From Marsupella aquatica (lineage: Eukaryota; Plantae; Marchantiophyta), in the NCBI GenBank assembly GCA_973895155.1, contig OZ316895.1:1376312-1440311 (forward strand): a stretch of DNA of 64,000 bases, read 5' to 3'. The translations under genes and the position numbers were made by a program. Shown one piece after another: positions 21,711-64,000 of this stretch (positions are counted from its first letter, which is position 1; each line of letters begins with the position of its first letter). The notes below the pieces were generated by a model, which worked only from the letters and a program-made list of their open reading frames with translations, ran no database searches and was not told where the DNA came from.

Positions 21711-21886
21711 TTTTGGCTAATATGCGCTAGAATTTCTTAACATCATTTGCCACTTTTCAACCACTTTTGGCTAATATGCGCTAGAATTTTTTAACACCAT
21801 TCGCCACTTTTTCACCAAATCATGACCCCATTTGCCAGAATCTAACGGCCCTCCTTAAATGATAGACGGCACTCCTTAAATGATAG
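21711..21886. repeat. Short tandem duplications (54 bp x2 and 21 bp x2)
   Basis: TTTTGGCTAATATGCGCTAGAATTT.. at 21711 and 21765; ACGGC.CTCCTTAAATGATAG twice from 21845. Confidence 0.8.
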
Positions 21887-22495
21887 GATATCTGACGGTC
21901 ATTATTTAATTCAGGAAAATCTGGTTGAGAAGATTCCTAGAATCTACTCACTAAGAGAACATTGGCCACACTGGCTAAAAATAAAAAACCTTAAAAAATA
22001 CGCTGCCACACACCCACACGAGAATGATGCATGTTCCCCTTAGCAGCACCTGTTCATGAGAATCCGAGCTTTCAGTTCCTTCAGAGGTCCACTGAAGACC
22101 TCGTCTGCCCACGAATCATGATCCACTTGTGACAGTATCTTCTCTGCTTTTCGACACAAGACGGAGCAAAGAGAGCTGCCCACAGATTTGGTTCGACTCT
22201 GGAGGTCGTTGTCTCCTCCCTTCTGAGCCTTTTTTCGAGGAGCTCGAGTCAGTGAAGCGAGAGCGATGGATAGTTTAGGTGATGTGGACCACATCTGCTT
22301 CCGAATGTCTTCTCGTTGTCGGTGAAAGCTGCCAAGAATTACAGTGTCGGTCGATTCCGCACGTTCTGTTTGCTCAGGTGCAGACGGAGAGGGAGGCCTG
22401 TGAGGAATGCTTTGAACCTCGTGAATGATTCAACGGAAAAACTTAGCGGAAATCTACCATTGGAGTTGGTCAGCACATCCACATTCGGTACATTC

Positions 22496-28452: not shown

Positions 28453-28796
28453 TGTTGAGCATAGACGACATTCGTAACGGCAAGCCCATGAACCATCCAA
28501 CGCACAAGAGTCGACACAGAGAGATACGTGGTTCACCTCCACATGAGGCTACGTCCACGGCAACACATAAGAGTTTTACTGCACTCTAGGCCGACCGGCC
28601 ATACCAAGCATCCACAACACAAGCTCTCCCTATCTCTCAACTAGCTCCGTAACAATGAGCCTAAGTTCCACCAGGGTCTGGAATCAGCCCTGGCTATATG
28701 CACACCAGCACTACCGCTAACATTAGCTAAGTCCTAACCCGAGTTAGACTAACTATGGTTAGCTCATGAGTCACAAGACTAGAGCAATATCTAACA
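28453..28796 (-). repeat. Copia-A 3' LTR (344 bp)
   Basis: TG...CA termini; PPT AAGGGGGAGTT adjacent at 28797-28807 (minus strand). Confidence 0.95.
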
Positions 28797-37000: not shown

Positions 37001-37440
37001 ACCAAAGTTTTACCTACCAATAGCTTTAGTCATTGTGTGGATATTATTAATGTTAGGGCCAAACCAGTGACTATGTAAATATGTTACTTAGTTACATATT
37101 GTATATCACCTGACTCATTGTGTGAACTTGAGTCAAGGTGGAGATTGTTAGGAATTGACTCTAGTTCCCGACATAGTTAGCTTGGCCTTACTAGGGTTAG
37201 TTTTAACCCTAGATTACATTAGGATAAGATCCGCTTAGTTTAGGCCCACTCATCTTGGCCCCCTTGGGGGGTATAGGCTGGAGGGAGAGCACTCTCTCCC
37301 TCATTCTTCACATGTACTCTCATTTGCTATGGAGCCTTCAGGAGTTTCTCCACTCGGTGTGTCTCGTCGGTGTAGCGTCTGATTGAGTGTCTCTCATGTT
37401 TCCGCATTGCTGTCTAGTCCGGAGCCGACGGTTTCTTACA
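31033..37440 (+). mobile_element. Copia-B: full-length Ty1/Copia element nested in the Copia-A integrase
   Basis: TSD GAAAA at 31028-31032 and 37441-37445. 295-bp LTRs at 31052-31346 and 37146-37440 (4 substitutions seen). PBS TGGTATCAGAGC at 31349-31360; PPT AAGGTGGAGAT before 37146. Confidence 0.95.
33062..37078 (+). pseudogene. Copia-B gag-pol polyprotein, single TGG>TGA stop in RNase H
   Basis: One frame containing CWHCHEKGHTKWNC, WMLDSG, DNGGEY, YVDDML, DSDYAG and KHIDIRYHF. Stop at 36698-36700 (ISW>IS*). Confidence 0.95.
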
Positions 37441-41560: not shown

Positions 41561-44500
41561 TGTGGTGCGTCCCATGGCTCCCTAAACCCAAGAAACCCCC
41601 CAGCTCAAGCCGATTCCCGCAGGTTTCGCGCTTGGCGAGGCCGTTTCCGCGGCTTAGCGGCATGGGACGCTGCTAACCTTCTACTACTACTATTAACATT
41701 TTACACACATATACTGGACAGATCCTTCATCGGGTCATGAGATACGTAGCCGGCCTAATCTAGGCCTTCCCCTGTCTTCCCCTCCGTCTTGTTAGGTATG
41801 TTTGGATTCCGCCGCCGGAATGATCCCCAATAGGCTTGGTTAAGCCGCTAAGACCTCTCTCAGCTCGACACATCCAACTCTCACTCCCCTGCTTACTTTC
41901 CTTCCTTTTGGTTGATGTGGGCACTCTTCACACAAGTTAATGCGACACACAAATAGCAAAATGACTCATTCTGATTGAGTCATACCATGCACTTGCCATA
42001 CAAACAGTACATCTCATACACAAGTTCTGCGAACTAAGCCGTGAGGCCAACTCTATTCAGCTCTTAGGCATGAGGAAACATGAATATACACAAGGGTCAC
42101 TGTATGACTAACCGAGAGCTTCTCGTACTACTTGATCCCAGCCCGGCTGGTGCAAACTAAAAACTTGCTAAAGAAGAGGCCCTTAGCTCCCCGCTGCCCA
42201 GGTACTTATCCTGGTAGTGGATCCGCCATTCTTTGCATCGTAAGCCTAATCTACCTAACAGTAATCTACTTGCCCGAATCTACCTATGTACAGCAAGGCA
42301 GGAGCACAAGTGTTGCTCCTACCAGTGGGACCGCAATCCCACTAAGCTAAGTATCAGGGCCGCTCCTGGTTCTGATCCTAATCCTAAACGTGGAGATCCG
42401 CGCCCGCCCTGCTCACTCACGCCTCCTCCCTCCACGTCCGCCCTCCCTAAAAGGAACGGCACCTTTGCACCGTCACGACACCGGTGGTGGATCCTTAATG
42501 GACGCCCCCAACGCTTCCTCCTCAGCCACTGCCGTAGGCTCATTCCCTGATAGATTACCTGCCCTTGACTGAGTCAATTCTCCCTCGGCCTGACTGGGTC
42601 CACCATCGGCGTTGGCATCGGCTCGGGAATCGGTTACGGCCTCAGCCTCGGCTACGGTCTCCCCGGCCTGCTCAAGAGGCGGATCTGGAATACCGGCCTC
42701 ATTACTGAGTAGTTCGGCTTGGGCCGCACCACCCCCACCTGTGATGATAGCGGGATCTATTGCCGTATTCATGCCGGAGGATGGTGCTGGTTCTACCTCT
42801 TTGGTCACCACGGCTTGTGGAGTCGGATTACTCCTTGACCCTGAAGGTTTCCGCTTTTTCTTCTTTTCTGGTTCGGCAGCTGGTCCCTTCCCCTTCCCAC
42901 TTACTTCCGGCACTGGTGCAGTTGGCGCGGCTTTTTCTTCGGCCAGTACCACTCCTGGTAACTTGGTTGCCCCAATTGGAGTTGGGCCTAATGAAGACAA
43001 GCACTTAAATACTGCGGCTTGTTTCTTCAGCCGCTCCGTTTGGTTGTCGGCCCGCCGCTGGAGGTTCTCCATCTTCCTCGTGATTTCCTCCAACTCCTCC
43101 TGGGTCTCATCCAGGTCCTTGCGTGCCTCCTCTAGTTCCTTTTGGGCTTCCTCCCGTTCTTGTTTCAAGGTAGTCCTCTCCTCCTGGGTTGCTCTTAGCT
43201 CCTTGTCGAGCTCTGCAATGATGACAGACTCCATCTGGTTCATCTTGGCGTAAGTCTGTTCGAGCATCTCGTCCTTCTCCCTTAGGTCTGCCTTGAAGCT
43301 GGCCGTCAGGGACGCAAGCTCCTGCTGCAGCGCCATAATCCCTTGATAGGATTTCCCTAACTCGGCCTCCTTCTGCCCAAGGGCTCCGCGGATTTTCTCG
43401 AGCTCCCCCTTCAACGCCCATTCCTTTCTTTGGGTCTCTGCCATGGCCCGGCTGTTGGCTGTTATGTGGGCCTCCTCTGTATTCTTCAGCTCTTGCTTCC
43501 ACTTCTCCCTCTCTTTGATCGTGTCGGCCAACTCTCCCTGCGTCTGAGTCAGTTTATCCTTGATATTCTGATTATCAGCCTGCGCGGTGTCCAACTGCCC
43601 CTGCATGATGTTCAGCTCATGTCGTTTAATCCGCAGTTCATCTTGGGCTTTCTTGGCCGCCCTTAGATCTTCAATCTCGGCTTCCATCCTCCTAAGCTGC
43701 CGAATGACCTCGTCCTTCTTGCTTCTCTCTAAAGCCACCGCTTCTTCTAATTGGTGCTTCTCCAACTGCTCCCTATGGAAAAAGGGTCCTACCTCCAACT
43801 CCTCTCCAAAGATGCCGAGCGCAAGTTCCCCACACATCTCACCATACTCCATGGCTCTATTCTTAGCGTAGGTGGAGTAAGTAGAAGTGATCGACATCGC
43901 CCATCGCGGCCTCTGCTCCCAAGCCGTCTTGCGGATCTCTTCAATCGTGGCTAGAGGTTTGCTTCCTTTTTTGGCTAGCCGCCTGATGTCCTCCGGCCAA
44001 TCTCCTCCTGGTAAATCCTTTTCCCTAGCCAGGGCTGCCTCCTCTTCCTGCTTGATTCGCTCCTGAAATTCCTGCACCGTCTGTTTTATGCCGTCGAAGC
44101 TCGGGGGAGCAACATCTGGTGGGGGAGACTCAGGGCTACTCTGCTGGTTGGGGTCCCCTCGCACTACCCTTGGAAGTGTGGGGACAAACCGGCCACAGGT
44201 CCTTACTCCTGGGACGTGATGGTCCGACCCATAGCAGGAATTATCATGGCTGCAGTCCTCCACTGCCTCCTCTACTTCTTGGCCGTCCGGCTTCTCCCTC
44301 TCCTCTTCCTCGGTAGGAGCTTTAGGCAATTCTGCCTCAGATTCGGAGCTTGAGATTCCCACATACATTCGAACACCTGGCTTGGATTCAGGCCTGATTC
44401 TCTCCTTGTCTCCAGCAAAGGGGTTTTCTCTTGTGAGCCGGTGTAGGCCTACCTCTGTAGTAGTGTCCTGCATTGTTGCCGTTGCCGTTGTTGTTGCCGA

Positions 44501-46223
44501 TGCCGATTTCTTTTCTTTCTCCAGTAGTTTCAGCAGACTCTGCATGCCTGGTTGCTACATCGGCAAGTCCTCCTTCCTGGGCCTAAACACGTGCTCGATC
44601 GTAGGGCTAACAGGTGGTTGAGGCTTCTCAGCCAACGGCCTCGGCGTTGGAGCTTCCTCGGGTGCCCTTACCTGCAGGGGAAGTACCGGGGCAAAAGTTT
44701 GACCTCTGGCATACCGGCACAACAGCGGCATGTGATAGCCAAGCCGCGACACGCTCCCCATGCCAATTACCTGCTGCTCCTCCTTTAAGATCTTCTTCAA
44801 TTGGTTGAGGAGGTACCCGTTGTAGTCCCGGCTTGGGTCTGGCCTTTCTGCCAGATAGACCTGTGCCTTGCCGATCTCTGCCCTCGGCAAGTTACAATGC
44901 ATGGTCACCCGCAAGAAGTCGATCATCTCTCCTATGTGCGGGTTGGTGCAGGTGTTCCGGAAGAAGCCATTCTTCATTGATGGCCCGGGGAACGACCGGA
45001 ACTCCTTGTCAGGCAAGGTCTTCCTGGTATCAACTTTGGTCTTATTGCCTATCGGCAAGCCAAACACTTCGGCAATTACCTTGGGAGTAAGATAGAAATC
45101 CTTCCCATATATCCTCGTGCAATTGGTCTCGGGTTCCCATGACCCCACGAATTCTAATAGGTCTGACTCCGGTACCTCCGGCTTCAGCCATGGTAATCTT
45201 ACAAAGGCCTCTAAGCCGGATCCGGCCATGAAGCCTTGGTACTTCTTGGTCTGCATGGCCGTGAAGCATGCATCCTCCTCCCGTGCAAAATGTAGTTGCA
45301 CCTCCACCGGTAGGGTTGCCGCCCAGCCCTTCCAGGTGTCATCCCTGGTTGGAATGGCCTTGATGGGATCGACCTCCTCCTCTTCGGCTTCTCCCTGCCT
45401 CCTGCTCTGCTGCTCGGTTGGCTTCTTTGGTGCCGCCGACCTCGTTCTTTTTGCCGGGGTGGCTTCATCATTGACGGCTCCTTTCCTCTTCATCTCTGCT
45501 GCCGTGGAGGTTTCTCCTAGCACCGTTGCCTGGGTCCACCTTTCTGTGCTACCCTTTAATTCCCAGTGTATGTCGTTGCAGTTCTTGATGGCCTCTCGGA
45601 TGCCGACAACGCTGTCTTTGCAAAACAGAAGATCGTCGAGTTGATTGGAAGTAGGCGTCCACAGGAACTCGTCCTTGATGAGTTCGCCTCCTAAGAAAGC
45701 CGTCTTCTGCAGCTCCCACAATCGAGCGAGCTCCTACCGTTCTCGAGCTACCCTTTCTGATTCCTCGTCCTCGTAAGTCTTGATGTACTCAGTTGCCCGT
45801 TCGAACAGGCATCCCCAGAAATGTGCCGCTTGATTGACGTTGTTCATACCCTCCTTAGGTCGATCGTCGGTATCTACTCTCTCCGCGAGTGCTTGCCTAA
45901 GCAGCTGACAGTAGTTGGCCTCCCGTAGTCGTCTGCCTAGTTCGTGCTCGCAAATGAGCCACCATCTCCTGCAAGCGCTCCTTACCCCTCTCCTCTGCCA
46001 GTCCTTCTTCCCGTTGATCCTTCCTAGCCGCCGACGCTTAACGCGCCCTAACCCTAATCAAGTTTTCACCCTCAGCGTCCTTACCTCCGGCCTCGGCCCG
46101 GGTTCCATGGTTGCCCCTAATGGTTTATATTTTCCTTATTTTGTCCCTATACTAAGGTGTTCCTAGGGTGCCTTCCTGCTTTACCCACTTAACTGGCCGA
46201 GTGATTCCTGTCTAGGCATCACA
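41561..46223 (-). mobile_element. Gypsy solo LTR (4663 bp) inserted in the Copia-A 5' LTR
   Basis: TG...CA termini, perfect TSD TACGT. Near-identical reverse complement of 46673-51344. Confidence 0.95.
42473..46108 (-). pseudogene. LTR-encoded protein, copy 1 (1212 codons, two CAG>TAG stops)
   Basis: Single frame from ATG 46108 to TGA 42473. The stops at 45734 and 44555 are CAG in the other copies. Confidence 0.85.
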
Positions 46224-46672: not shown

Positions 46673-49600
46673 TGTGATGCCTAGACAGGAATCACTCGGC
46701 CGGTTAAGTGGGTAAAGTAGGAAGGCACCCTAGGAACACCTTAGTATAGGGACAAAACAAGGAAAATATAAACAATTAAGGGCAACCATGGAACCCGGGC
46801 CGAGGCCGGAGGTAAGGCTGAGGGTGAAAACCCGATTAGGGTTTAGGGCGCGTTAAGCATCGGCGGCTAGGAAGGATCAACGGGAAGAAGGACCGGCGGA
46901 GGAGAGGGGTAAGAAGCGCTTGCAGGAGATGGTGGCTCATTTGCGAGCACGAACTAGGCAGACGACTATGGGAGGCCAACTACTGTCAGCTGCTTAGGGC
47001 AAGCACTCGGGGAGAGAGTAGATACCGACGATCGACCTAAGGAGGGTATGAGCAATGTCAATCAAGCGGCACATTTCTGGGGATGCCTGTTCGAACGGGC
47101 AACTGAGTACATCAAGACTTACGAGGACGAGGAGTCAGAAAGGGCAGCTCGAGAACGGCAGGAGCTCGCTCGATTGTGGGAGCTGCAGAAGACGGATTTC
47201 TTAGGAGGCGAACTCATCAAGGACGAGTTCCTGTGGACGCCTACTTCCAATCAACTCGACGATCTTCTGTTTTGCAAAGACAGCATCGTCGGCATCCGAG
47301 AGGCCATCAAGAACTGCAACGACATACACTGGGAATTAAAGGGTAGCACGGAAAGGTGGACCCAGGCAACGGTGCTAGGAGAAACCTCCACGGCAGCAGA
47401 GATGAAGAGGAAGGGAGCCGTCAACGATGAAGCCACCCCGGCAAAAAGAACGAGGTCGGCGGCACCAAAGAAGCCAGCCGAGCAGCAGAACAGGAGGCAG
47501 GGAGAAGCCGAAGAGGAGGAGGTCGATCCCATCAAGGCCATTCCAACCAGGGATGACACCTGGAAGGGCTGGGCGGCAACCCTACCGGTGGAGGTGCAAC
47601 TACATTTTGCACGGGAGGAGGATGCATGCTTGACGGCCATGCAGACCAAGAAGTACCAAGGCTTCATGGCCGGATCTGGCTTGGAGGCCTTTGTAAGATT
47701 ACCATGGCTGAAGCCGGAGGTACCGGAGTCAGACCTATTAGAATTCGTGGGGTCATGGGAACCCGAGACCAATTGCACGAGGATATATGGGAAGGATTTC
47801 TATCTTACTCCCAAGGTAATTGCCGAAGTGTTTGGCTTGCCGATAGGCAATAAGACCAAAGTTGATACCAGGAAGACCTTGCCTGACAAGGAGTTCCGGT
47901 CGTTCCCCGGGCCATCAACGAAGAATGGCTTCTTCCGGAACACCTGCACCAACCCGCACATAGGAGAGATGATCGACTTCTTGCGGGTGACCATGCATTG
48001 TAACTTGCCGAGGGCAGAGATCGGCAAGGCACAGGTCTATCTGGCAGAAAGGCCAGACCCAAGCCGGGACTACAACGGGTACCTCCTCAACCAATTGAAG
48101 AAGATCTTAAAAGGAGGAGCAGCAGGTAATCGGCATGGGGAGCGTGTCGCGGCTGGGCTATCACATGCCGCTGTTGTGCCGGTATGCCAGAGGTCAGACT
48201 TTTGCCCCGGTACTTCCCCTGCAGGTAAGGGCACCCGAGGAAGCTCCAACGCCGAGGCCGTTGGCTGAGAAGCCTCAACCACCTGTTAGTCCTACGATCG
48301 AGCACGTGTTTAGGCCCAGGAAGGAGGACTTGCCGATGCAGCAACCAGGCATGCAGAGTCTGCTGAAACTACTGGAGAAAGAAAAGAAATCGGCATCGGC
48401 AACAACAACGGCAACGGCAACAATGCAGGACACTACTACAGAGGTAGGCCTACACCGGCTCACAAGAGAAAACCCCTTTGCTGGAGACAAGGAGAGAATC
48501 AGGCCGGAATCCAAGCCAGGTGTTCGAATGTACGTGGGAACCTCAAGCTCCGAATCTGAGGCAGAATTGCCTGAAGCTCCTACCGACGAAGAGGAGAGGG
48601 AGAAGCCGGACGTCCAAGAAGTAGAGGAGGCAGTGGAGGACTGCAGCCATGATAATTCCGGCTATGGGTCGGACCATCACGTTCCAGGAGTAAGGACCTG
48701 TGGCCGGTTTGTCCCCACACTTCCAAGGGTAGTGCGAGGGGACCCCAACCAGCAGAGTAGCCCTGAGTCTCCCCCACCAGATGTTGCTCCCCCGAGCTTC
48801 GACGGCATAAAACAGACGGTGCAGGAATTTCAGGAGCGAATCAAGCAGGAGGAGGAGGCCGCCCTGGCTAAGGAAAAGGATTTACCAGGAGGAGATTGGC
48901 CGGAGGACATCAGGCGGCTAGCCAAAAAAGGAAGCAAACCTCTAGCCACGATTGAAGAGATCCGCAGGACGGCTTGGGAGCAGAGGCCGCGATGGGCGAT
49001 GCCGATCACTTCTACTTACTCCACCTACGCTAAGAATAGAGCCATGGAGTATGGTGAGATGTGTGGGGAACTTGCGCTCGGCATCTTTGGAGAGGAGTTG
49101 GAGGTAGGACCCTTTTTCCATAGGGAGCAGTTGGAGAAGCACCAATTAGAAGAAGCGGTGGCTTTAGAGAGAAGCAAGAAGGACGAGGTCATTCGGCGGC
49201 TTAGGAGGATGGAAGCCGAGATTGAAGATCTAAGGGCGGCCAAGAAAGCCCAAGATGAACTGCGGATTAAACGACATGAGCTGAACATCATGCAGGGGCA
49301 GTTGGACACCGCGCAGGCTGATAATCAGAATATCAAGGATAAACTGACTCAGACGCAGGAAGAGTTGGCCGACACGATCAAAGAGAGGGAGAAGTGGAAG
49401 CAAGAGCTGAAGAATACAAAGGAGGCCCACATAACAGCCAACAGCCGGGCCATGGCGGAGACCCAAAGAAAGGAATGGGCGTTGAAAGGGGAGCTCGAGA
49501 AAATCCGTGGAGCCCTTGAGCAGAAGGAGGTCGAGTTAGGGAAATCCTATCAAGGGATTATGGCGCTGCAGCAGGAGCTTGCGTCCCTGACGGCCAGCTT

Positions 49601-51344
49601 CAAGGCCGACCTAAGGGAGAAGGACGAGATGCTCGAACAGACTTACGCCAAGATGAACCAGATGGAGTCTGTCATCATTGCAGAGCTCGACAAGGAGCTA
49701 AAAGCAACCCAGGAGGAGAGGACTACCTTGAAACAAGAACGGGAGGAAGCCCAAAAGGAACTAGAGGAGGCACGCAAGGACCTGGATGAGACCCAGGAGG
49801 AGTTGGAGGAAATCACGAGAAAGATGGAGAACCTCCAGCGGCGGGCCGACAACCAAACGGAGCGGCTAAAGAAACAAGCCGCAGTATTTAGGTGCTTGTC
49901 TTCATCAGGCCCAACTCCAATTGGGGCAACCAAGTTACCAGGAGTGGTACTGGCCGAAGAAAAAGCCGCGCCAACTGCACCAGTGCCGGAGGTAAGTGGG
50001 AAGGGGAAGGGACCAGCTGCCGAACCAGAAAAGAAGAAAAAGCGGAAACCTTCAGGGTCAAGGAGTAATCCGACTCCACAAGCCGTGGTGACCAAAGAGG
50101 TAGAACCAGCACCATCCTCCAACATGAATACGGCAATAGATCCCGCTATGATCACAGGTAGGGATGGTGCGGCCCAAGCCGAACTACTCAGTAAGGAGGC
50201 CAGTATTCCAGATCCGCCTCTTGAGCAGGCCGGGGAGACCGTAGCCGAGGCTGAGGCCGTAACCGATTCTCGAGCCGATGCCGACGCCGATGGTGGACCC
50301 AGTCAGGCCGATGGAGAGTTGACTCAGTCAAGGGCAGGTAATCTGTCAGGGAATGAGCCTACGGCAGTGGCTGAGGAGGAAGCGTTGGGGGCGTCCATTA
50401 AGGATCCACCACCGGTGTCGTGACGGTGCAAGGGCGCCGTTTCTTTTAGGGAGGGCGGACGTGGAGGGAGGAGGCGTGAGTGGGCAGGGTGGGCGCGGAT
50501 CTCCACGTTTAGGATTAGGATCAGAACCAGGAGCGGCCCTGACACTTAGCTTGGTGGGATTGCGGTCCCACTGGTAGGAGCAACACTTGTGCTCCTGCCT
50601 TGCTGTACATAGGTAGATTCGGGCAAGTAGATTACTGTTAAGTAGATTAGGCTTACGATGCAAAGAATGGCGGATCCACTACCAGGATAAGTACCTGGGC
50701 AGCGGGGAGCTCAGGGCCTCTTCTTTAGCAAGTTTTTAGTTTGCACCAGCCGGGCTGGGATCAAGTAGTACGAGAAGCTCTCGGTTAGTCATACAGTGAC
50801 CCTTGTGTATATTCATGTTTCCTCATGCCTAAGAGCTGAATAGAGTTGGCCTCACGGCTTAGTTCGCAGAACTTGTGTATGAGATGTATTGTTTGTATGG
50901 CAAGTGCATGGTATGACTCAGTCAGAATGAGTCATTTTGCTATTTGTGTGTCGCATTAACTTGTGTGAAGAGTGCCCACATCAACAGAAGGAAGGAAAGT
51001 AAGCAGGGGAGTGAGAGTTGGATGTGTCGAGCTGAGAGAGGTCTTAGCGGCTTAACCAAGCCTATTGGGGATCATTCCGGCGGCGGAATCCAAACATACC
51101 TAACAAGACGGAGGGGAAGACAGGGGAAGACAGGGGAAGGCCTATATTAGGCCGGCTACGTATCTCATGACCCGATGAAGGATCTGTCCAGTATATGTGT
51201 GTAAAATGTTAATAGTAGTAGTAGAAGGTTAGCAGCGTCCCATGCCGCTAAGCCGCGGAAACGGCCTCGCCAAGCACGAAACCTGCGGGAATCGGCTTGA
51301 GCTGGGGGGTTTCTTGGGTTTAGGGAGCCATGGGACGCACCACA
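46673..51344 (+). repeat. Gypsy 5' LTR (4672 bp)
   Basis: TGTGATGC...GCACCACA, followed by the PBS. Confidence 0.95.
46788..50423 (+). pseudogene. LTR-encoded protein, copy 2 (no nonsense codons seen; three +1 homopolymer insertions)
   Basis: ORFs 47048-48268 and 48135-50423 join if one A is removed near 48110. Extra T near 46843 and extra G near 46998 relative to the 3' LTR copy. Confidence 0.85.
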
Positions 51345-51348
51345 TTTT

Positions 51349-51366
51349 TGGCGCTAGATGGAGGGG
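51349..51366 (+). promoter_or_regulatory. Gypsy primer binding site, probably tRNA-Asn
   Basis: TGGCGCTAGATGGAGGGG, 4 nt after the LTR. From recall, it resembles the complement of the plant tRNA-Asn(GUU) 3' end with one mismatch. Confidence 0.7.
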
Positions 51367-53955
51367 GCATTTCTTAAGCCGTGAGATATGAAGTTAGAAC
51401 GGAAGCGTAGGTAATGACTGACCTTACGCCGAGGGAAGAAAGAGTGATTCAACGGGAGAGAGCTCGACTGCAGCAGCTCGCCGGGTGGCATGATACACAG
51501 CGACTGAGAGGGGCAGAAAGAGCTGGTAGCTCCGAAACTGGAAGTGGCGTCGAAGAAGACATACCAGAAGAAGAGTCGGTAAGGAGAAGTGAGTCTCCAA
51601 CCGACATGGGGGAACCAGAGGCACGGCCAGACGAGAGGCCAGGGACCAGATTGAGCCAGCGGTCGCGCATACATTACAAGGCATTTCATGGGAGAGGAGA
51701 TGAGGATCCGGACGAATGGTTGGATGATTTCGAGGGAACCGCTGCAGCAAATGGAGAATCGGCCATCAAGATGCAGATTCTTCCCGGCCTATTCAAGGGT
51801 GAGGCTAGGCCTTGGTACAGAGCATTAGATGTGGAAGATCAAGCCATCTGGGATATCTTCAAAACACTCTTTGTTAAGGAGTTTCGACCCATTGGAACTT
51901 CAGAACTAGCAGTGCTGAAGTTGGGACAACTTCGGTTCAAGGAGAACAAATCCTTCAGGAAGTTCTTGCAACGCTTTCAGAAACTGGTAAGACGTACAAA
52001 GACCAATGCATCTGAAGGTATGCAACTTCAATGGTTGGTGAATGCTTTGCCACAGAAGATGAGTTTTGCAATTAGGAAGGAGAACCCGGAGACTTTAGCC
52101 GAAGCAATTAAGGATATTCAATTATACATTAATGCAGATATCACAAGCTGGAAGAAACAGCTTAAGTCTGAGAGTTCCTCATCAGAGGAGGGATCACCCC
52201 ATAAGAAAAAAGATAAGAAGAAGAAACATCCCAAGAAGTCTAGAAGTGATAAGTCAAGCTCGGATAGTGGGAGTAGCAAGAGTGAGTCATCTTCTAGTTC
52301 TGAAGAAGAAAAAACTAGGAAAAGGAAGGGCAGAAGGAGAGGGAAGACGAAAGTCAAGATGGAGGCTAAGCCACCAGATAACATCGTAGCCCTTACCGAG
52401 CAACTTAAGGCTATCATTGCAGAGGTAAAACCAAAGAAGAAGGTAGTACAGGAGGATAGCTCTGTATGGTGTGCCTTATGTTATAAAACCGGACACCATA
52501 AAGATACGTGTCCTAAGCTTAATACTAATCATGTTTGGCATGTGGCCGAGATCAGACCATGTCAGGGAGAAGTAGAGTACTTTTTAGGAGATGCCGCTGA
52601 TAGTGTTTTCGGCATCAGTGAGACTGGAGCACGAGACCTATCCAACAGACCTGCATCTCTGTGGTCAGGGTTAAGGAACAATCCAGGAGAGATGTATCCT
52701 CGGATTATTCAGAACCCGTCAGTACCTCCTAGGCCGAACGTGCAAAGATTTGCGGCGTGCTATAATTGTGGTCAACCTGGCCATTTTGCTAGAGAATGCC
52801 CGAATGCACGCAAACAGGGTGATGGACAACCAGCTCAGCTATGTATGGGATGCCGACAGGAAGGTCATATGCTAGGGCAATGTCCTACTTGGTTGGCAGG
52901 CCTGGCCGCAAATCATAAGCTTTTGCCGATCAAGATCTTACCGCCAGGTACTACCCCCGGAGGAGTTCAAATCAACCACATCGAACTAGGATGGCAAGAG
53001 GATGCCGAGGCAGAGTTCGTACCATCTGCTGATGAGGCCAAAGCCCTATCAACCTTCTCAGAGGAGGATTTAGATCATGATTGCTACCGGGTCTCTACTC
53101 GATCTACCAGAAGGAAGGAAAGGTGGGATGGGCTGGCCAAAAATAAAGGGAAGGTTACGGAGGAAAGGATCGACTCTTTGTCAACATCAACAGAAGGAGA
53201 AGGGAGGGCTCCGGCAATACAGGTAAGCCATGAGCCCACCAGTGAAACCAATCCTTCACAAGATAGCGACTTCAATCGAGATCATCCTAAGTTGTTCTAC
53301 CCCTCTGTTACGGCTAGTGTTAAGGAACAACTAAGAGAATTAGAAACCCTGGAGAATACCGAAGCCATTGCCAAGGATGTAAAACGAGCAAAAGCATTGT
53401 TTGCTTCGGAAGACCCAACAGCTGTGGAGACTAGCGTGGCAAAACTGGCCGAATCCAAGACGGAAACACCACCAGAAGAGAAGCCGATTGTTCCCTATGA
53501 CCTGGCTAAAGATGTACTGGAATCTAGAGTCTCGGCAACAGTAGGTCAACTATTGAAAAATAGCCCGTATTTCCGGAAGCAATTAAGGAAGGCTATTCTC
53601 GGCAAGCCGAGATTACCCAAGGTAGCAACCAGATCCGACGTACTAATGATAGAAGAAGATCAAGGAGCTCCAGCATTACCATTAATGATTCAAGGAGAAT
53701 TATTACTACAGGTACCCATCGATGGAGGATCAGGGGTATGTATTATGATTGATTCAACAGCAAAAGGGTGGGGTCTAACACCGGAGATGACTGGAAGAGT
53801 GTTGAACATGGCCAATGGATATCAGGTCATTCCTACGGGAGTGTTAACCGGCATCAAGACAGAGATAGGAGGTATCTTCTTTAGCATTAACTATGTAGTA
53901 ATGAAGCCGGTAAATCCTACGTCATTCCGGCTATTGATTGGTAGGCCATGGCTGT

Positions 53956-55800
53956 TGTAAGTAGTGGGTAATTCCAAAAGCATGAAGAAACTGAAAATTT
54001 TTAAATTTTTTACGGTGTTTAGACTGCAATTATTGCTAACTGTAACTAAAACAGCATTCAAAGTTACTAAGTTCCTAAGTTACGAGTAAACTCAGTTTAC
54101 GAGTTTACTAGTTCACTGCTTTACGAGTTACACCTTAAGATTTGGCGACTCTGTGATCGTGACATCTTACAACTAGTTCAACGGGACTCCACAACGGATG
54201 AAGAGCTCACCTTGAAAGGGAAGGAATGCAAGACATAGGCGCTCATTACTGACTTCTCTTCCACCTTACCTCTCAAACTCTGCCCAGCTTCAACCGGTAT
54301 TTCAGAGATGTCAAATGGAGACTTCGACCCTTCTATTCCAGGATGCTGAATAGTGATGAGTTCCTGTTTCATTATTCTCAAGTGTATGCTGCTACCTGCA
54401 ACAACTATGATGTGATCGGGATATACAGAGAAGCTCTTCGTATAGATTCCTGTTATTTGATGAAGCGAATGCCTTTGATGTATCCTGAGAGACAACTAAG
54501 GTGCCTACCCTACTCTCGAGGATCACCACGTCAGACTGAGCTGATGGAGGTAACACAGAATTGGACTGTCACCTACGTGGAGCTGCTCGAACCCGATGAT
54601 ATTCGACAACAAGCTTGAAGGAGACTATATTTTTAGCTAGTATTGAAAAGTATAGTACTTTTACCAATTTTTCTAAATGTGTTGTAGAGCTTTAAAAGCT
54701 ATGAGACTTCTTTAGGCTGTAGTCTGTACCTAGGAAACCCTACTGGAAAAATTTCAGAGTTTTCCGAACCAGGAGTAGAAAGTTAAAAATAGTTGAATCT
54801 ACTCAATTTTTAGTATACTGAAATTAAGAGTTTAAGAGTTTAAGTTTTTACGTTTTTAAGAGTTTAAGTTTTTAAGAGTTTAAGAGTTCATACTTAGCCA
54901 TTTTTTCCGGCTTTCCACTTATTGAATCGTCGTTTTGACTTTTTGAGGGTTATGAAGAGGCATGTCTCTTCGACCCTGTGACCTCTTATTCTGTAGTTCA
55001 TCACTATTTATACCTCTTCCCCTAGTGTAGAGAGATGGTTAAGTTTTGCAGTTTTGCCTCTCCCTTGTGTTAAACTAGTTGATCATGAATCTATGAGTTC
55101 GAGATCAGGTTTAACATTTGGAGAGACTTACCTCCTTCTTGTATTTTGGAACCCAAATACTTGAAGTAAAACCTCAGTTATGAATCTCGTGAATTATAAT
55201 GTCAGATTCCGCTTTGGTGACACATTGTAATCTCACAAGTTCTTAGAGTTAACTCATTGAGTTTAAGTTGCATTGGAAATGATGTTTTCACCTTCATGTT
55301 GCTTAGTACCATTTAAATGCTGAAGTATTTATCCTTTTAGATCTTGACTAAGTATCACTTAGGAAGAAAGGTCAAGACATGTTGCCGGCATTTTAAAAGG
55401 ATACTCTAGTATGCAGTTTAGATCTGAAAAGCCGTGTGGATTTGGATTCCCTTTAAAGTCATTCCATTATTACTTATGTCTAAGGAGTAACCTTGGTCTA
55501 TTCCAGACTCCCTTAAGCATACTCTGAGAGATTTTTCCTTGTGTTTTGTTAATTGCAATCTTTTGCTTAATTGAAGGTTATCTGATGTTGAGTTATCATC
55601 AAAAACTACTCACCGCTATGGAGCGATCTTCAAAGTACCTGATTAAAGTAGTCAAGATTGATTACTATGTGTGACACAAGAGCTTAAAGCTTTGTTTTTA
55701 GTTTATTACATCAAACCAACCCCATCTTGTTCTTAAAGGGAACGAATACCGAGTTTGGAGACTTTAAAATGTGATTTTTGGTTCTCTATGGCAAACTACA
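53956..55800. mobile_element. 1845-bp solo-LTR-like insertion of another family
   Basis: TGTA...TACA termini, perfect TSD GCTGT, AT-rich, internal AAGAGTTT repeats near 54830-54890. Confidence 0.85.
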
Positions 55801-56163
55801 GCTGTACCTAGCCGAGGTAATAGAAGATTGGGGTAAAAAGCAGTTCACTTTCGGGACCCCCTCTATCACGGTATCCTGGGACACTAAGGATGACCGTAGG
55901 AAAAGCATAAGGGAAGTAGATGGGTACGACAGTGGACTGGAGTCAGCCGATGAAGTACGTTGGTTAGAATGCCTCACTAACCTAACCGAAGAAGGTGTCT
56001 TTGGACCAGAGGTAGCCCCCAGCGGATTATGGCAAGAACCAATGGAAGGTGACTTGGAAGAAGAAGACGAAGAGGTCGAGGACTGCTTTACAATAGAATC
56101 CACCTTTTTAGCTGCAATTCCGGAGGAAGTAAAGGATGTAGACCAATTGGATGAAACGGCTAA

Positions 56164-59100
56164 GTGGGGAGCAGTAGCAGGGACAGTGGATTTTCTGCAG
56201 GCGTTGTGGCAGAGCCGACGGGGTCCACAACGCCATCGATCATCGGCAAGGAATTAAATACCAAGGGATCGGCATACAAGCCGATTACGAGGGCAGAACA
56301 AATTGAGGCCCTATTAGAAGCCGAGAGAGCACAGCGGCCTAACTCTCAGGAGCAAGAGGTGGATGAGATGGACAGACACGATCCAGAGCCAAGGCAGGAA
56401 GGGGAGCCGACCACTAATTCAAAACCGAATAGACCGGTAAGGGGACAATCTATGGACACCAAGGAAAGGACCGACTCGGCTAGTCCAGCCGAGATCCCAG
56501 TTTATGGAGGTATGAGATTAGAGAGACTGGAAGCCGAACTGGACCCGAATTTGAAGAAGCAGATTAATATGATCCAAGCACGGCAATATCGGAAGCTCGA
56601 CTTAGGAGAGGGAAGAGAACTGAACTTAGGGAGAAACCTAGCACCTGAGCTCGAGAAAGAGATCAGTGACTTATTGATTGAATTTTAGGATGTGTTTGCA
56701 TGGAGTCACCAAGATCTAAAGGGAGTAGATCCAACACTAGGGGAACATCGAATTGATCTCATGTTAGGAGCCAAATCATTTCGACAACCAATTCGAAGGA
56801 TGAACCCGAAGTATTCCCTGCTGGTCAAAACAGAAATCGACAAACTAGTGGAAGCTGGATTCATCACTCCAGTCCTGCATTCAGATTGGGTGTCTCCAAT
56901 TGTGATAGTTCCCAAGAAAGCTGGACCCGATGGTAAACCCAAGATCCGGGTTTGTCAGGATTACAGGAAGCTGAATGAAGCAACATTAAAAGACCATTTT
57001 CCTTTACCGTTTACTGATATGGTACTAGACATGGTAGCCAGTCATGAACTATATTCATTCATGGATGGATACTCTGGTTATAACCAAATCAGGATTCGGC
57101 AGGAAGACCAAATCAAGACGGCCTTCATCACGGAATGGGGGATCTATGTCTTCAATCGTATGCCGTTTGGACTCTGCAACGCACCAGCTATGTTCCAATG
57201 ATTAATGGTGAACATTTTTCATGATTACTTGAGAAAGTTCATGGAAATCTTCATTGATGACTTTGCAGTATTCGGGAAGGCATCGAAACATGCTAAATAC
57301 CTCAGGAAAACCTTCATGAGATGTAGAGAGGTGGGTCTCAAGTTACACCCAGATAAATGTTTTTTTGCAGTAACCGAGGGGGTGCTACTAGGTCACAAGG
57401 TATCAAGGAAGGGCATTGAGATTGACAAAGGTAAGGTAGCAGTATGGCTAGATATCATGCAACCTAAGAACATAAAGGATGTAAGATCCTTCTTGGGATG
57501 CATTGGTTACTATCGCCGGTTCATCAAGGATTTTGCCAAGCTAGCTTTACCATTAACCAATATGCTCAAGGCAGGAGCAGACTTCGAACCCACACCCGAA
57601 CGAGTCACAGCGGTGGTAGAATTGAAGCAGATGTTAGTAGAGGCCCCAGTCATGATAGCACCGGACTGGAACAAAGATTTTCATGTTTTTGTAGATGTCT
57701 CGGGCTTCTGTATTGGCTCAGTACTAAGTTAGTTGGATGAGAAAGGAAGGGACCATCCCATATACTTCGCAAGCCGACAGCTTGCCGATGCCAAACGGAA
57801 CTACTCTACCACGGAAAGAGAAGCATTAGGAGTCATTTATTCTTGTAAAAAGTTTAGGCATTATTTACTAGGGTACAAGGTAATCTTTCATACTGATCAC
57901 GAAAGTTTGAAGTACCTAGTCAATAAGCCGGACCTTACAGGCAGAGTAGCAAGATGGATTTTGCTATTACAGGAGTTTGACTATGAGCTGAGGATCAAGC
58001 CGGGAAAGTTACATGCCAATGCCGACTTCTTTTCAAGGATCACAAATAAACCTGCCACGGATTGCATCGATGATCGATTCCCCGACGAGGAGCTATTCGT
58101 TGTGGAAATAGCTGGTACATGGTACCCTGAGATTTTACAATTTCTCAGCACTTCCAGATTACAGCCAGGATTAAGCCGAGAGCAAGCCACAGTCTTTGTG
58201 CGGAAGGTCAGACAGTATCAGTGCATTAAAGGCATACTGCACAAGCATGGAATCAACGGCACGATTCAAAGATGTTTGGAAAAGAGTGAGGTAAAACGAG
58301 TCCTACGGGCCATGCATGGAGAGGAGGCCGGAGGACATTTTGCCCCAGTAACCACGTCTAAGAAGATATTAAATGCCGGTTACTGGTGGCCCACCTTGCA
58401 CAAAGATGTCTATCAGTTTATCAAACAATGCGATCCTTGTCAACGAGCGGGAGGACCAAGGGCGTCCACCAGGCATCCACTGCACCCTATTCTACCTCTA
58501 GCACCATTCGAGAAGTGGGGTATTGATTACATTGGACCTCTGAGACCACTGACCCACCCTCGACGGAACAAGTACATAATCCTGGCTACGGATTATGCAA
58601 CTAAATGGGTAGAGGCCAGACCAACAACGAAGGATGATGCAATTACTACGGCTAGATTCATGTATGAGCAGATCTTCACCAGGTATGGAGCACCCCTAGA
58701 ATTAGTTAGTGATAGAGGAACCCATTTTTTGAATGATATAATTAGTCGTTTAAATGAGCAGTATTTAGTTAAACATAGGCCTACTACTCCCTACCATCCA
58801 AAGGCAAACGGGTTGACAGAACGAGCAAACGGAATTATAGGAAAGATATTGAACAAGACAGTAGCTCAGAACAAACTCGATTGGGATGATAAATTGTTTG
58901 CTGCTGTTTTTGCTTACAATCTTGCCTATAAATCCACTACCGGTCATACACCCTTCTTCTTAACCTTTGGACAAGAAGCCCTGGTACCCATGCAACTTGA
59001 GATACCGACATTTCAAGTTACAATTGAGGAAAGAGCCTCAGCGGAGGAGAGCCTAAAGGAGCGAGAATATAGGTTAGAAGCTTTAGAGGAAGCAAGAATG

Positions 59101-59430
59101 ATTTCAGCCGAGAGAGTAGAATATAGACAGAATATCATGAAGCAGCAGTATGATAAAAGGTTAAAAGTAGTTAGTATTCATACCGGTGATCTTGTGCTAC
59201 TTTATGACAGTAGGTATAGTAGGTTTCCAGGAAAGCTTTACACTCGCTGGTTAGGACCCTTTAGAGTAACCATGATGTTCCCCAATGGCTCCGTACAATT
59301 GGCCAACATTACGGGAGAGGTATATCCAGTTCGCATCCATTATGACCGCCTCAAGAAATACTATATGGACGAAGATGAAGTTGTTCGCGAGGACGCTTCA
59401 CAATTAAGTGGGGAGCTATGTGATGCCTAG
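56164..59430 (+). pseudogene. Gypsy pol (RT, RNase H, integrase), three in-frame stops
   Basis: Motifs WVSPIVIVPKK, DYRKLN, MPFGLCNAP, FIDDF, RNYSTTERE, H..GH..C..C, SDRGTHF, GPF. Stops at 56686, 57199 and 57730. The ORF runs through the PPT and ends 12 nt inside the 3' LTR. Confidence 0.95.
56188..56247 (+). promoter_or_regulatory. Candidate programmed -1 ribosomal frameshift signal
   Basis: G_GAT_TTT in the gag-PR frame, then a 5-nt spacer. 10-bp stem 56200-56209/56225-56234; loop GCCGA pairs with TCGGC at 56243-56247. The pol frame is -1. Confidence 0.75.
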
Positions 59431-62181
59431 ACAGGAATCACTCGGCCGGTTAAGTGGGTAAAGCAGGAAGGCACCCTAGGAACACCTTAGTATAGGGACA
59501 AAACAAGGAAAATATAAACAATTAAGGGCAACCATGGAACCTGGGCCGAGGCCGGAGGTAAGGCTGAGGGTGAAAACCCGATTAGGGTTAGGGCGCGTTA
59601 AGCGTCGGCGGCTAGGAAGGATCAACGGGAAGAAGGACCGGCGGAGGAGAGGGGTAAGGAGCGCTTGCAGGAGATGGTGGCTCATTTGCGAGCACGAACT
59701 AGGCAGACGACTACGGGAGGCCAACTACTGTCAGCTGCTTAGGCAAGCACTCGGGGAGAGAGTAGATACCGACGATCGACCTAAGGAGGGTATGAGCAAC
59801 GTCAATCAAGCGGCACATTTTTGGGGATGCCTGTTCGAACGGGCAACTGAGTACATCAAGACTTACGAGGACGAGGAGTCAGAAAGGGCAGCTCGAGAAC
59901 GGCAGGAGCTCGCTCGATTGTGGGAGCTGCAGAAGACGGCTTTCTTAGGAGGCGAACTCATCAAGGACGAGTTCCTGTGGACGCCTACTTCCAATCAACT
60001 CGACGATCTTCTGTTTTGCAAAGACAGCGTCGTCGGCATCCGAGAGGCCATCAAGAACTGCAACGACATACACTGGGAATTAAAGGGTAGCACGGAAAGG
60101 TGGACCCAGGCAACGGTGCTAGGAGAAACCTCCACGGCAGCAGAGATGAAGAGGAAGGGAGCCGTCAACGATGAAGCCACCCCGGCAAAAAGAACGAGGT
60201 CGGCGGCACCAAAGAAGCCAGCCGAGCAGTAGAACAGGAGGCAGGGAGAAGCCGAAGAGGAGGAGGTCGATCCCATCAAGGCCATTCCAACCAGGGATGA
60301 CACCTGGAAGGGCTGGGCGGCAACCCTACCGGTGGAGGTGCAACTACATTTTGCACGGGAGGAGGATGCATGCTTTACGGCCATGCAGACCAAGAAGTAC
60401 CAAGGCTTCATGGCCGGATCCGGCTTGGAGGCCTTTGTAAGATTACCATGGCTGAAGCCGGAGGTACCGGAGTCAGACCTATTAGAATTCGTGGGGTCAT
60501 GGGAACCCGAGACCAATTGCACGAGGATATATGGGAAGGATTTCTATCTTACTCCCAAGGTAATTGCCGAAGTGTTTGGCTTGCCGATAGGCAATAAGAC
60601 CAAAGTTGATACCAGGAAGACCTTGCCTGACAAGGAGTTCCGGTCGTTCCCCGGGCCATCAACGAAGAATGACTTCTTCCGGAACACCTGCACCAACCCG
60701 CACATAGGAGAGATGATCGACTTCTTGCGGGTGACCATGCATTGTAACTTGCCGAGGGCAGAGATCGGCAAGGCACAGGTCTATCTGGCAGAAAGGCCAG
60801 ACCCAAGCCGGGACTACAACGGGTACCTCCTCAACCAATTGAAGAAGATCTTAAAGGAGGAGCAGCAGGTAATCGGCATGGGGAGCGTGTCGCGGCTGGG
60901 CTATCACATGCCGCTGTTGTGCCGGTATGCCAGAGGTCAGACTTTTGCCCCGGTACTTCCCCTGCAGGTAAGGGCACCCGAGGAAGCTCCAACGCCGAGG
61001 CCGTTGGCTGAGAAGCCTCAACCACCTGTTAGTCCTACAATCGAGCAGGTGTTTAGGCCCAGGAAGGAGGACTTGCCGATGCAGCAACCAGGCATGCAGA
61101 GTCTGCTGAAACTACTGGAGAAAGAAAAGAAATCGGCATCGGCAACAACAACGGCAACGGCAACAATGCAGGACACTACTACAGAGGTAGGCCTACACCG
61201 GCTCACAAGAGAAAACCCCTTTGCTGGAGACAAGGAGAGAATCAGGCCGGAATCCAAGCCAGGTGTTCGAATGTACGTGGGAACCTCAAGCTCCGAATCT
61301 GAGGCAGAATTGCCTGAAGCTCCTACCGACGAAGAGGAGAGGGAGAAGCCGGACGTCCAAGAAGTAGAGGAGGCAGTGGAGGACTGCAGCCATGATAATT
61401 CTGGCTATGGGTCGGACCATCACGTTCCAGGAGTAAGGACCTGTGGCCGGTTTGTCCCCACACTTCCAAGGGTAGTGCGAGGGGACCCCAACCAGCAGAG
61501 TAGCCCTGAGTCTCCCCCACCAGATGTTGCTCCCCCGAGCTTCGACGGCATAAAACAGACGGTGCAGGAATTTCAGGAGCGAATCAAGCAGGAGGAGGAG
61601 GCCGCCCTGGCTAAGGAAAAGGATTTACCAGGAGGAGATTGGCCGGAGGACATCAGGCGGCTAGCCAAAAAAGGAAGCAAACCTCTAGCCACGATTGAAG
61701 AGATCCGCAGGACGGCTTGGGAGCAGAGGCCGCGATGGGCGATGCCGATCACTTCTACTTACTCCACCTACGCTAAGAATAGAGCCATGGAGTATGGTGA
61801 GATGTGTGGGGAACTTGCGCTCGGCATCTTTGGAGAGGAGTTGGAGGTAGGACCCTTTTTCCATAGGGAGCAGTTGGAGAAGCACCAATTAGAAGAAGCG
61901 GTGGCTTTAGAGAGAAGCAAGAAGGACGAGGTCATTCGGCGGCTTAGGAGGATGGAAGCCGAGATTGAAGATCTAAGGGCGGCCAAGAAAGCCCAAGATG
62001 AACTGCGGATTAAACGACATGAGCTGAACATCATGCAGGGGCAGTTGGACACCGCGCAGGCTGATAATCAGAATATCAAGGATAAACTGACTCAGACGCA
62101 GGAAGAGTTGGCCGACACGATCAAAGAGAGGGAGAAGTGGAAGCAAGAGCTGAAGAATACAGAGGAGGCCCACATAACAGC
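59419..62181 (+). repeat. Gypsy 3' LTR (first 2.76 kb) with copy 3 of the LTR ORF from ATG 59534 (TAG at 60230)
   Basis: Near-identical to the sequence from 46673; preceded by PPT AAGTGGGGAG; cut at ACAGC by a nested copy. Confidence 0.93.
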
Positions 62182-64000
62182 TGTGGTGCGTCCCATGGCT
62201 CCCTAAACCCAAGAAACCCCCCAACTCAAGCCGATTCCCGCAGGTTTCGTGTTTGGCGAGGCCGTTTCCGCGGCTTAGCGGCATGGGACGCTGCTAACCT
62301 TCTACTACTACTATTAACATTTTACACACATATACTGGACAGATCCTTCATCGAGTCATGAGATACGTAGCCGGCCTAATATAGGCCTTCCCCTGTCTTC
62401 CCCTGTCTTCCCCTCCGTCTTGTTAGGTATGTTTGGATTCCGCCGCCGGAATGATCCCCAATAGGCTTGGTTAAGCCGCTAAGACCTCTCTCAGCTCGAC
62501 ACATCCAACTCTCACTCCCCTGCTTGCTTTCCTTCCTGCTGTTGATGTGGGCACTCTTCACACAAGTTAATGCGACACACAAATAGCAAAATGACTCATT
62601 CTGACTGAGTCATACCATGCACTTGCCATACAAACAGTACATCTCATACACAAGTTCTGCGAACTAAGCCGTGAGGCCAACTCTATTCAGCTCTTAGGCA
62701 TGAGGAAACATGAATATACACAAGGGTCATTGTATGACTAACCGAGAGCTTCTCGTACTACTTGATCCCAGCCCGGCTGGTGCAAACTAAAAACTTGCTA
62801 AAGAAGAGGCCCTGAGCTCCCCGCTGCCCAGGTACTTATCCTGGTAGTGGATCCGCCATTCTTTGCATCGTAAGCCTAATCTACTTAACAGTAATCTACT
62901 TGCCCGAATCTACCTATGTACAGCAAGGCAGGAGCACAAGTGTTGCTCCTACCAGTGGGACCAGTGTCAGGGCCGCTCCTGGTTCTGATCCTAATCCTAA
63001 ACGTGGAGATCCGCGCCCGCCCTACCCACTCACGCCTCCTCCCTCCACGTCCGCCCTCCCTAAAAGGAACGGTGCCCTTGCACCGTCACGACACCGGTGG
63101 TGGATCCTTAATGGACGCCCCCAACGCTTCCTCCTCAGCCACTGCCGTAGGTTCATTCTCTGACAGATTACCTGCCCTTGACTGAGTCAACTCTCCATCG
63201 GCCTGACTGGGTCCACCTTCGGCTTCAGCCTCGACACCGGCCTCGGCAATACCCACGGCTTCGGCCTCAGCCACTCCCTCGGCTTTGGCCTCCCCTTCCC
63301 CTAGGGTAGTTGGATCCCTAGCCGTGACCCTGTCTGAGGTCGGTGCTGGGTCTACCTCCTTGATCACCACGGCCTGTGAAGTCGTATTACTCCTTGACCC
63401 TGAAGGTTTCCGCTTCTTCTTCGTTGGTGGCTCGGCAGCTGGTCCCTTCCCCTTCCCACTTACTTCCGGCACTGGTGCAGGTGGCGCGGCTTGTCCTTCG
63501 GCAATTACCAGCCCTGGTAACTGGTTTGTCCAAACGGGAGATGGACCTGCTGCAGCTAAGCATTTAAATACTGCGGCTTGTTTCTTCAGCCGCTCTGTTT
63601 GGTTGTCGGCCCGCCGCTGTAGGTTCTCCATCTTCCTCGTGATTTCCTCCAACTCCTCTTGGGTTTCATCCAGGTCCTTACGTGCCCCCTCCAGCTCGTT
63701 TTTGGCCTCCTCCTGCTCCCTGTGGGCTTCCTCCAATTCCTTCTTCAAGGTAGCCCTCTCCTCCTGGGTTGCTCTTAGCTCCTTGTCGAGCTCTGCAATG
63801 ATGACAGACTCCATCTGGTTCATCTTGGCGTAAGTCTGTTCGAGCATCTCGTCCTTCTCCCTTAGGTCGGCCTTGAAGCTGGCCGTCAGGGACGCAAGCT
63901 CCTGCTGCAGCGCCATAATCCCTTGATAGGATTTCCCTAACTCGACCTCCTTCTGCTCAAGGGCTCCGCGGATTTTCTCGAGCTCCCCTTTCAACGCCCA
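62182..64000 (-). mobile_element. Fourth Gypsy LTR copy (3' end), nested in the opposite orientation, partial
   Basis: Begins TGTGGTGCG exactly as at 41561. Confidence 0.93.
63086..64000 (-). CDS. LTR-encoded protein, copy 4, C-terminal part (variant)
   Basis: Open frame homologous to copies 1 and 2, with in-frame indels. Confidence 0.8.
   Translation of the reverse strand, partial: WALKGELEKIRGALEQKEVELGKSYQGIMALQQELASLTASFKADLREKDEMLEQTYAKMNQMESVIIAELDKELRATQEERATLKKELEEAHREQEEAKNELEGARKDLDETQEELEEITRKMENLQRRADNQTERLKKQAAVFKCLAAAGPSPVWTNQLPGLVIAEGQAAPPAPVPEVSGKGKGPAAEPPTKKKRKPSGSRSNTTSQAVVIKEVDPAPTSDRVTARDPTTLGEGEAKAEGVAEAEAVGIAEAGVEAEAEGGPSQADGELTQSRAGNLSENEPTAVAEEEALGASIKDPPPVS

Follow-up and report, generated by a model that had tools for sequence, protein, structure and literature searches.

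Does the long terminal repeat (LTR) of a plant retrotransposon house a protein-coding gene? This question is raised by a Gypsy-type element in a 64,000-nt stretch of the genome of the liverwort Marsupella aquatica (GenBank assembly GCA_973895155.1, contig OZ316895.1, positions 1,376,312 to 1,440,311 of the forward strand; hereafter the window, whose own numbering is used), in which most of a 4.67-kb LTR is taken up by a long sense frame. Our analysis suggests that a selected gene very probably resides in this LTR. At the family level, a gene of ~1,210 codons is well supported by sequence comparison; this length is inferred, because the copies are broken at different places and none is intact.

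We first established what the repeat is. Self-comparison of the window revealed four copies (A, B, C, and D), and the following features define them and their limits.

46673..51344, plus strand: copy A, the 5' LTR, 4,672 bp, with TG..CA ends (self-BLAST and end inspection)
41561..46223, minus strand: copy B, a solo LTR with the target-site duplication (TSD) TACGT; gene span complete, three premature stops
59419..62181, plus strand: copy C, the 5' part of the 3' LTR, interrupted at 62181; one stop at 60230
62182..64000, minus strand: copy D, a fourth LTR inverted into the 3' LTR and extending past the window end
51348..51366, plus strand: primer binding site (PBS), TGGCGCTAGATGGAGGGGG
59406..59418, plus strand: polypurine tract (PPT) and spacer, immediately at the end of pol
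46789..50423, plus strand: LTR-resident gene span, ~1,210 codons, broken in copy A

A, B, and C have one 5' end in common, A, B, and D have one 3' end in common, and the termini are TG..CA. A PBS-like sequence (TGGCGCTAGA), which we take to be tRNA-Asn-like, lies 3 nt past the end of the 5' LTR and is followed by gag, and the PPT (AAGTGGGGAG) ends 3 nt (CTA) short of the start of the 3' LTR at 59419. TACGT stands at either end of copy B as a 5-bp TSD, and in a paralogue of the target site that lacks the insertion (28452–28661) these bases occur a single time; the TSD is visible for the solo copy only, the 3' end of the full element lying beyond the window. In public contigs, a 42-nt PPT-proximal segment (59382–59423) is common to other elements that differ on both sides of it, with loose contig ends at 59382 and 59423–59425 in three of four runs. 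The shared ends, the TSD of the solo copy, the empty-site paralogue, and the shared PPT segment together indicate a true LTR and not a local duplication. An initial annotation, made from the sequence alone, had fixed the LTR limits by the PBS, the PPT, and a TSD-flanked solo copy, and all three were confirmed along with the TG..CA ends.

The 5' and 3' LTRs (A and C) differ by 0.6%, and the non-coding 3' part of the LTR differs by 1.2–2.0% among A, B, and D. Copy D is a mosaic: in its visible part, the initial ~200 bp and the final ~1 kb are almost the same as in A, and ~700 bp in the 3' part of the gene are ~13% divergent from A, which suggests recombination between subfamilies inside the LTR gene. 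The depth of public contigs is higher over the LTR than over gag, which was not taken as a measure of copy number. In one run, the segment 59382–59423 reached a depth of 17,000–23,000 versus ~100–250 alongside, and the elements sharing it are far more abundant ones.

The frame extends from an ATG at +116 of the LTR to a terminal DPPPVS and covers 78% of the LTR length; from a second in-frame ATG at 47048, the gene would have ~1,120 codons. Compared with B and C, copy A carries one extra base in each of three homopolymer runs (46842, 46997, and 48109); these insertions split its frame into open reading frames (ORFs) of 436 and 770 aa and may be either assembly errors or real mutations. Copy B has its three premature stops, copy C has the stop at 60230 and is cut at 62181 by copy D, and only the last 304 codons of copy D, which are open, fall within the window. 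The breaks sit at differing positions, and none of the window copies is intact. Four of them, the stop of copy C and the three insertions of copy A, were checked in public contigs: the stop is absent from 96–100% of the depth in all four runs, and for each insertion, all four runs have contigs without it. The initial annotation had described 78% of the LTR as one ORF; the start, the span, and the DPPPVS end hold, but no copy in the window is unbroken, and the very copy it named carries three frameshifts.

To examine selection, the ratio of nonsynonymous to synonymous substitution rates (dN/dS) was calculated by the Nei-Gojobori method, with bootstrap confidence intervals (CI), for pairs of window copies, which share history and are not independent. 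The ratio was 0.28 for B versus C (878 codons, CI 0.13–0.54), 0.36 for A versus D (297 codons, CI 0.24–0.56), 0.39 for B versus D, and 0.29 and 0.39 for A versus B, compared in two parts, with bootstrap intervals below 1, and A versus C had too few differences (one interval extended to 1.55). In a control that takes mutation type into account, 21 of 45 differences between B and C were synonymous versus 14.6 expected (P = 0.033), as were 38 of 93 between A and D versus 25.6 expected (P = 0.004), and neither of the remaining sense frames had a synonymous excess. Where A and D are gapped against each other, the frame stays open across the 304 codons of D, and the antisense frames of the gene contain 24–51 stops. 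Variants in public contigs were taken from the best 40 of 423 and the best 40 of 72 rows, 24 and 36 of which lay within the tested frames and were used; the synonymous share was 16 of 27 downstream of the second ATG and 12 of 20 for the 3' part. On these sequence comparisons, the LTR frame is under purifying selection: among the window copies, the dN/dS check proposed by the initial annotation gave 0.28–0.39, not a value near 1. For the Arg-rich start, which had been counted as part of the protein, the comparison gave no clear sign of coding, as four of eight contig variants within these 86 codons were synonymous (P = 0.27).

What kind of protein would such a gene encode? The predicted product consists of a basic N-terminus, a globular domain of ~215 aa, an acidic and proline-rich linker, a heptad region of 266 aa, a KKKKRK run, and an acidic tail.

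47558..48209, plus strand: conserved ~215-aa globular domain whose core is a helix-hairpin-helix (mapped from copy C, 60302–60952)
49113..49910, plus strand: proline-free heptad-rich region, 266 aa, predicted to form a coiled coil by a simple heptad score, with weak Pfam matches to coiled coils
50031..50048, plus strand: KKKKRK, resembling a nuclear localization signal (NLS)

The proline-free stretch agrees with the ~250-aa coiled coil of the initial annotation, and the NLS-like run is present where it had been reported; copy D retains a basic run at this position. No transmembrane segment was found in the LTR protein (maximum 19-residue hydropathy 0.89). A search of the full protein library with the domain yielded 20 matches, 16 of which were aligned together with one cluster member (identity 19–44%); left out were P0005, P0007, and P0018, which are repeat proteins unrelated to the domain, and P0014, a short piece in which the match was lost. 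Of 10 relatives looked up, the 2 that name an organism are both from the liverwort Calypogeia fissa, and a third turned up in another search; relatives include CAM6090539.1 and CAM6122807.1, and one relative, P0027, has the same order of domain, linker, and coiled coil.

No Pfam family matched the domain, and neither the plant mobile domain (PMD, PF10536) nor DUF1985 (PF09331), Transposase_32 (PF20167), or ATHILA (PF03078) was listed for it or its relatives at the curated cut-off, so that the plant-mobile/Transposase_32-type assignment of the initial annotation is reduced to a lead. An Atlas search led to plant clusters including DUF1985 (score 0.90, 82% of members) and PMD (0.88, 14%). In a wide fold search, DNA-bound VANC21 (9LNK) ranked third with 150 aligned residues, the longest alignment listed (the next had 83); none of 48,161 chains reached Z ≥ 5, and in a second look none of six reached Z ≥ 2. 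Neither PDB nor the viral folds of BFVD yielded a fold match at E ≤ 0.001, PDB sequence searches gave chance or coiled-coil rows only, and a word-index protein search found no matches for the linker region and, with an alignment, only two and one proteins. A single-sequence model had a pLDDT of 30. By eye, the W-x-P-E-T...GLP spacing in the domain resembles that in PMD rows. The PMD of MAIL1 has been reported to resemble the DUF1985 domain of VANC (bioRxiv 10.1101/2024.09.27.615353), and VANC to resemble MAIN, with VANC and Athila-domain proteins modelled as coiled-coil pentamers (PMC13547354). Because PMD, DUF1985, and VANC are reported to be structurally alike, the Atlas and VANC21 leads converge on one group. 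These weak leads, none significant alone, suggest that the domain may be DUF1985/PMD/VANC-like.

To which lineage does the element belong? Its internal region is interrupted by a nested insertion.

51414..53955, plus strand: gag (Retrotrans_gag, CCHC) and protease-like region (Pfam; protease motif read from the sequence only)
53956..55800, no strand assigned: AT-rich TG..CA insertion of 1,845 bp with the 5-bp TSD GCTGT, splitting gag-pol
55806..59430, plus strand: rest of pol, comprising linker, reverse transcriptase (RT), RNase H (RH) as well as integrase (INT), with three in-frame stops and a frameshift (Pfam)

From its sequence, the insertion most probably represents another family's solo LTR, and no second copy was found within the window; an Ogre-type intron, considered for this 1.8-kb gap in gag-pol, was rejected by the TG..CA ends and the 5-bp TSD. 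Gag-pol was originally a single frame, now split by the insertion, and the element would measure ~15.6 kb without it. The stop codon of pol lies 10–12 nt inside the 3' LTR; thus, there is no 3' internal region. The domain order is that of Ty3/gypsy elements (GAG-PR-RT-RH-INT, with gag, RT, RH, and INT identified by Pfam and the protease, PR, by motif), and Pfam searches of the PR–RT and RH–INT intervals and of the sequence beyond INT found neither an additional RNase H (aRH) nor a chromodomain. When compared with the lineage features (aRH, chromodomain, and TSD length) in the table of Neumann et al. 2019 (PMC6317226, supplement 5), the element fits best as Athila-like, having no aRH, no chromodomain, and a 5-bp TSD, a placement made by feature table. 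Athila elements use tRNA-Asp or tRNA-Asn as primer; the PBS here may be of the tRNA-Asn kind, and its motif gave no result in a literature search. Tat (TatI-III, Ogre, and Retand) was ruled out by the lack of an additional aRH, and Phygy and Selgy, which need a 4-bp TSD and a short element without an extra ORF, were ruled out as the TSD here is 5 bp.

How, then, might the gene be copied and expressed? The PPT stands at the end of pol and upstream of the gene, which is thereby duplicated with the LTR and occurs in the 5' LTR, the 3' LTR, and the solo copy. The statement of the initial annotation that each element carries two copies and every solo LTR keeps the complete gene stood in so far as the repeat that holds the gene is a genuine LTR and the solo copy carries the whole span; it failed in that the only solo seen has three stops. 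The gene's DNA survives LTR-LTR recombination, but nothing indicates continued function in solo copies; the one seen is decaying. Candidate control signals within the LTR are the following.

46767..46772, plus strand: TATAAA, an inferred candidate promoter of the LTR gene, 22 nt ahead of the first ATG (motif scan)
50424..51344, plus strand: non-coding 3' part of the LTR
~51111–51139, plus strand: short 10-bp tandem repeat
51139–51153, plus strand: GGCCTATATTAGGCC, candidate main TATA box with a flanking palindrome, ~200 bp before the LTR end

The TATA-like word at 51143 would confine R and U5 to the final ~170 bp of the LTR and put the gene in U3. Genomic RNA would then start near 51170, have a length of ~11 kb, and contain the gene once, at its 3' end, the position of the Athila extra ORF. 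Expression of the gene might use a promoter located where the LTR begins (the TATA-like word at 46767) or proceed through a spliced RNA, and with this second word each LTR may express the gene alone. As to its origin, an Athila-type 3' extra ORF would enter the LTR in one step if plus-strand priming shifted upstream, to the end of pol. With its PMD/DUF1985-like domain and coiled coil, the product may be a nuclear, oligomeric DNA-binding regulator that shields the element from host silencing, the anti-silencing function being proposed by analogy with VANC and MAIN/MAIL proteins. The whole chain, in which an Athila-like element carries a selected U3 gene of ~1,210 codons for a nuclear DNA-binding anti-silencing regulator, is tentative, and we give it somewhat less than an even chance. 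It is unlikely that each LTR moreover works as an anti-silencing unit complete in itself, equipped with promoter, ORF, poly(A) site, and target motifs of its own, so that young solo copies would act in trans as helper genes that de-repress the family.

Several observations weigh against this chain. With regard to the domain, there was no Pfam match even at E-values up to 5–10, the top three Atlas rows have no common family, Atlas feature counts are low (143–155 of 256), and the alignment-based model is poor (pLDDT 54, pTM 0.37) apart from a confident helix-hairpin-helix core. The VANC21 match (Z 3.0, root-mean-square deviation 7.5, 7% identity) is within noise according to the guide of the tool and was missed by Foldseek and by a PDB sequence profile. 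The non-coding part of the LTR contains no VANC-type target-motif arrays among the largest 20 of at least 60 repeat families, only the 10-bp tandem repeat, and the limits of U3, R, and U5 are drawn from TATA-like words alone. No related loci that could bear on the PPT-shift origin were recovered, either for pol in viral contigs or for the LTR protein and P0027 in metagenomes. As for selection, besides the non-independence of the copy pairs, one antisense frame, which shares third positions, also has a synonymous excess, and the region 47048–48106 gave no signal (one of four contig variants synonymous). The observed/expected CpG ratio (0.70 in the LTR, 0.60 in gag-pol, and 0.21–0.58 in other elements) shows differences too small, and not age-matched, to be evidence of methylation protection.

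Other explanations share part of this evidence. The gene could serve the replication cycle and not chromatin marks, as a coiled-coil scaffold for particles, as a tether for integration, or by bringing the pre-integration complex into the nucleus; the long coiled coil, the NLS-like run, and the lack of a chromodomain would suit such a role, and nuclear roles have been proposed for other extra ORFs (PMC7264820), but the weak domain leads point to PMD, DUF1985, and VANC, whose studied members act on silencing, and we find this explanation rather doubtful. Alternatively, transcription might begin near the 5' end of the LTR, where the TATAAA at 46767 lies. The gene would then be in R/U5 and behave as the upstream PMD-CC (coiled coil) ORF does in lineage IV of Tat, with a strong-stop DNA of ~4.5 kb; PMD-CC ORFs on the sense strand at the 5' side have been described (PMC4408406). 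Such a placement seems improbable to us in view of the TATA-like word and palindrome ~200 bp before the LTR end. A 3.6-kb ORF before gag would hinder gag translation, and so long a strong-stop DNA would be unusual.

Since all full-span copies in the window are broken, and GC content at third codon positions is 0.61–0.64 in the LTR gene (46789–50423) versus 0.44 in gag/pol (51414–59430), the gene may have another origin and could be a captured passenger, selected in an earlier setting and now drifting without a role. The synonymous excess between copies just 2% apart and among present-day variants, however, as well as gaps between A and D that keep the frame open in D, make this very unlikely. 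An envelope-like fusion protein would share with env-like ORFs the sense orientation 3' of pol and the coiled coil (PMC7264820), but the protein has an NLS-like run, no hydrophobic segment, and no significant viral-fold match, and this identity is hardly credible.

The Athila lineage bears an extra ORF, eORF-3'F (ATHILA ORF-1 PF03078 or Transposase_32 PF20167; PMC6317226; sunflower Athila 14, PMC11728184). Like Athila, the present element has no aRH or chromodomain, a 5-bp TSD, a single gag-pol frame, and a large sense ORF with an NLS-like signal 3' of pol. Unlike in Athila, the ORF lies past the PPT and inside both LTRs, pol enters the LTR and leaves no 3' internal region, and the LTR protein has no Pfam match to PF03078 or PF20167. 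Tat elements carry PMD-CC extra ORFs (Ustyantsev et al. 2015, PMC4408406), and Ogre LTRs reach 1.9–6.5 kb, long LTRs being counted as non-coding in a review (PMC6431247). The ~5-kb LTR and a plant-mobile-like globular domain followed by a coiled coil recall these elements (the PMD match here is below threshold); in contrast, Tat has aRH, and its ORFs are drawn 5' in sense or 3' in antisense. VANC proteins are anti-silencing proteins of VANDAL DNA transposons (PMC5735166), and MAIN/MAIL1 (PMC5418596) may share with them and with our protein a fold (weak leads), a coiled coil after the domain, and the predicted character of a transposon-borne nuclear protein. Unlike VANC, the LTR protein belongs to another element class, with no sequence match and no target-motif arrays seen among the largest repeat families. 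In retroviruses, MMTV sag and HIV nef are protein genes in the LTR/U3 that are copied at reverse transcription, nef merely overlapping U3. Their LTR location is shared, but their proteins are unrelated and about four to six times shorter. In the available parts of published accounts, extra ORFs are placed in the internal region (PMC7264820, PMC4408406, PMC11728184, PMC6317226), and SMC-like extra ORFs have also been described in retrotransposons. Narrow exact-phrase literature searches, which covered the surveys only in part so that an earlier description may exist, returned no plant LTR-resident gene; the titles listed concern crocodilian retroviruses and the peanut element FIDEL. Judged by its predicted features, the protein type does not appear to be new (PMD-CC, or Athila ORF-1/Transposase_32 with an NLS), and it is the location in a plant LTR that we did not find described.

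Elsewhere in the window, a plus-strand Copia element with 297-bp repeats (31050–31346 and 37144–37440) and a 1,230-aa ORF with Copia Pfam domains appears to be nested in a minus-strand Copia (29340–39381). ORF fragments on the minus strand at 2500–12700 presumably belong to a CACTA-type transposon, judging from their translations, and beside them are frames that we take to be BRCT-like (10507–11235) and PHD/zinc-finger-like (11954–12661).

Plant LTRs are usually regarded as non-coding, and surveys locate extra ORFs 5' or 3' of gag-pol; here a large selected gene occupies most of an LTR. An LTR-resident gene gives LTRs of 5 kb one tangible rationale, and a solo LTR can then be a copy of the gene. 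As the gene and its likely cis-targets form one repeat unit, full-length elements could be set against solo copies in their methylation and expression. Should the VANC-like lead prove correct, this would be a retrotransposon carrying a sequence-specific anti-silencer. If, in addition, the LTR is a self-contained gene, LTR-LTR recombination, the main route by which the host deletes retrotransposons, would leave a counter-defence gene behind.

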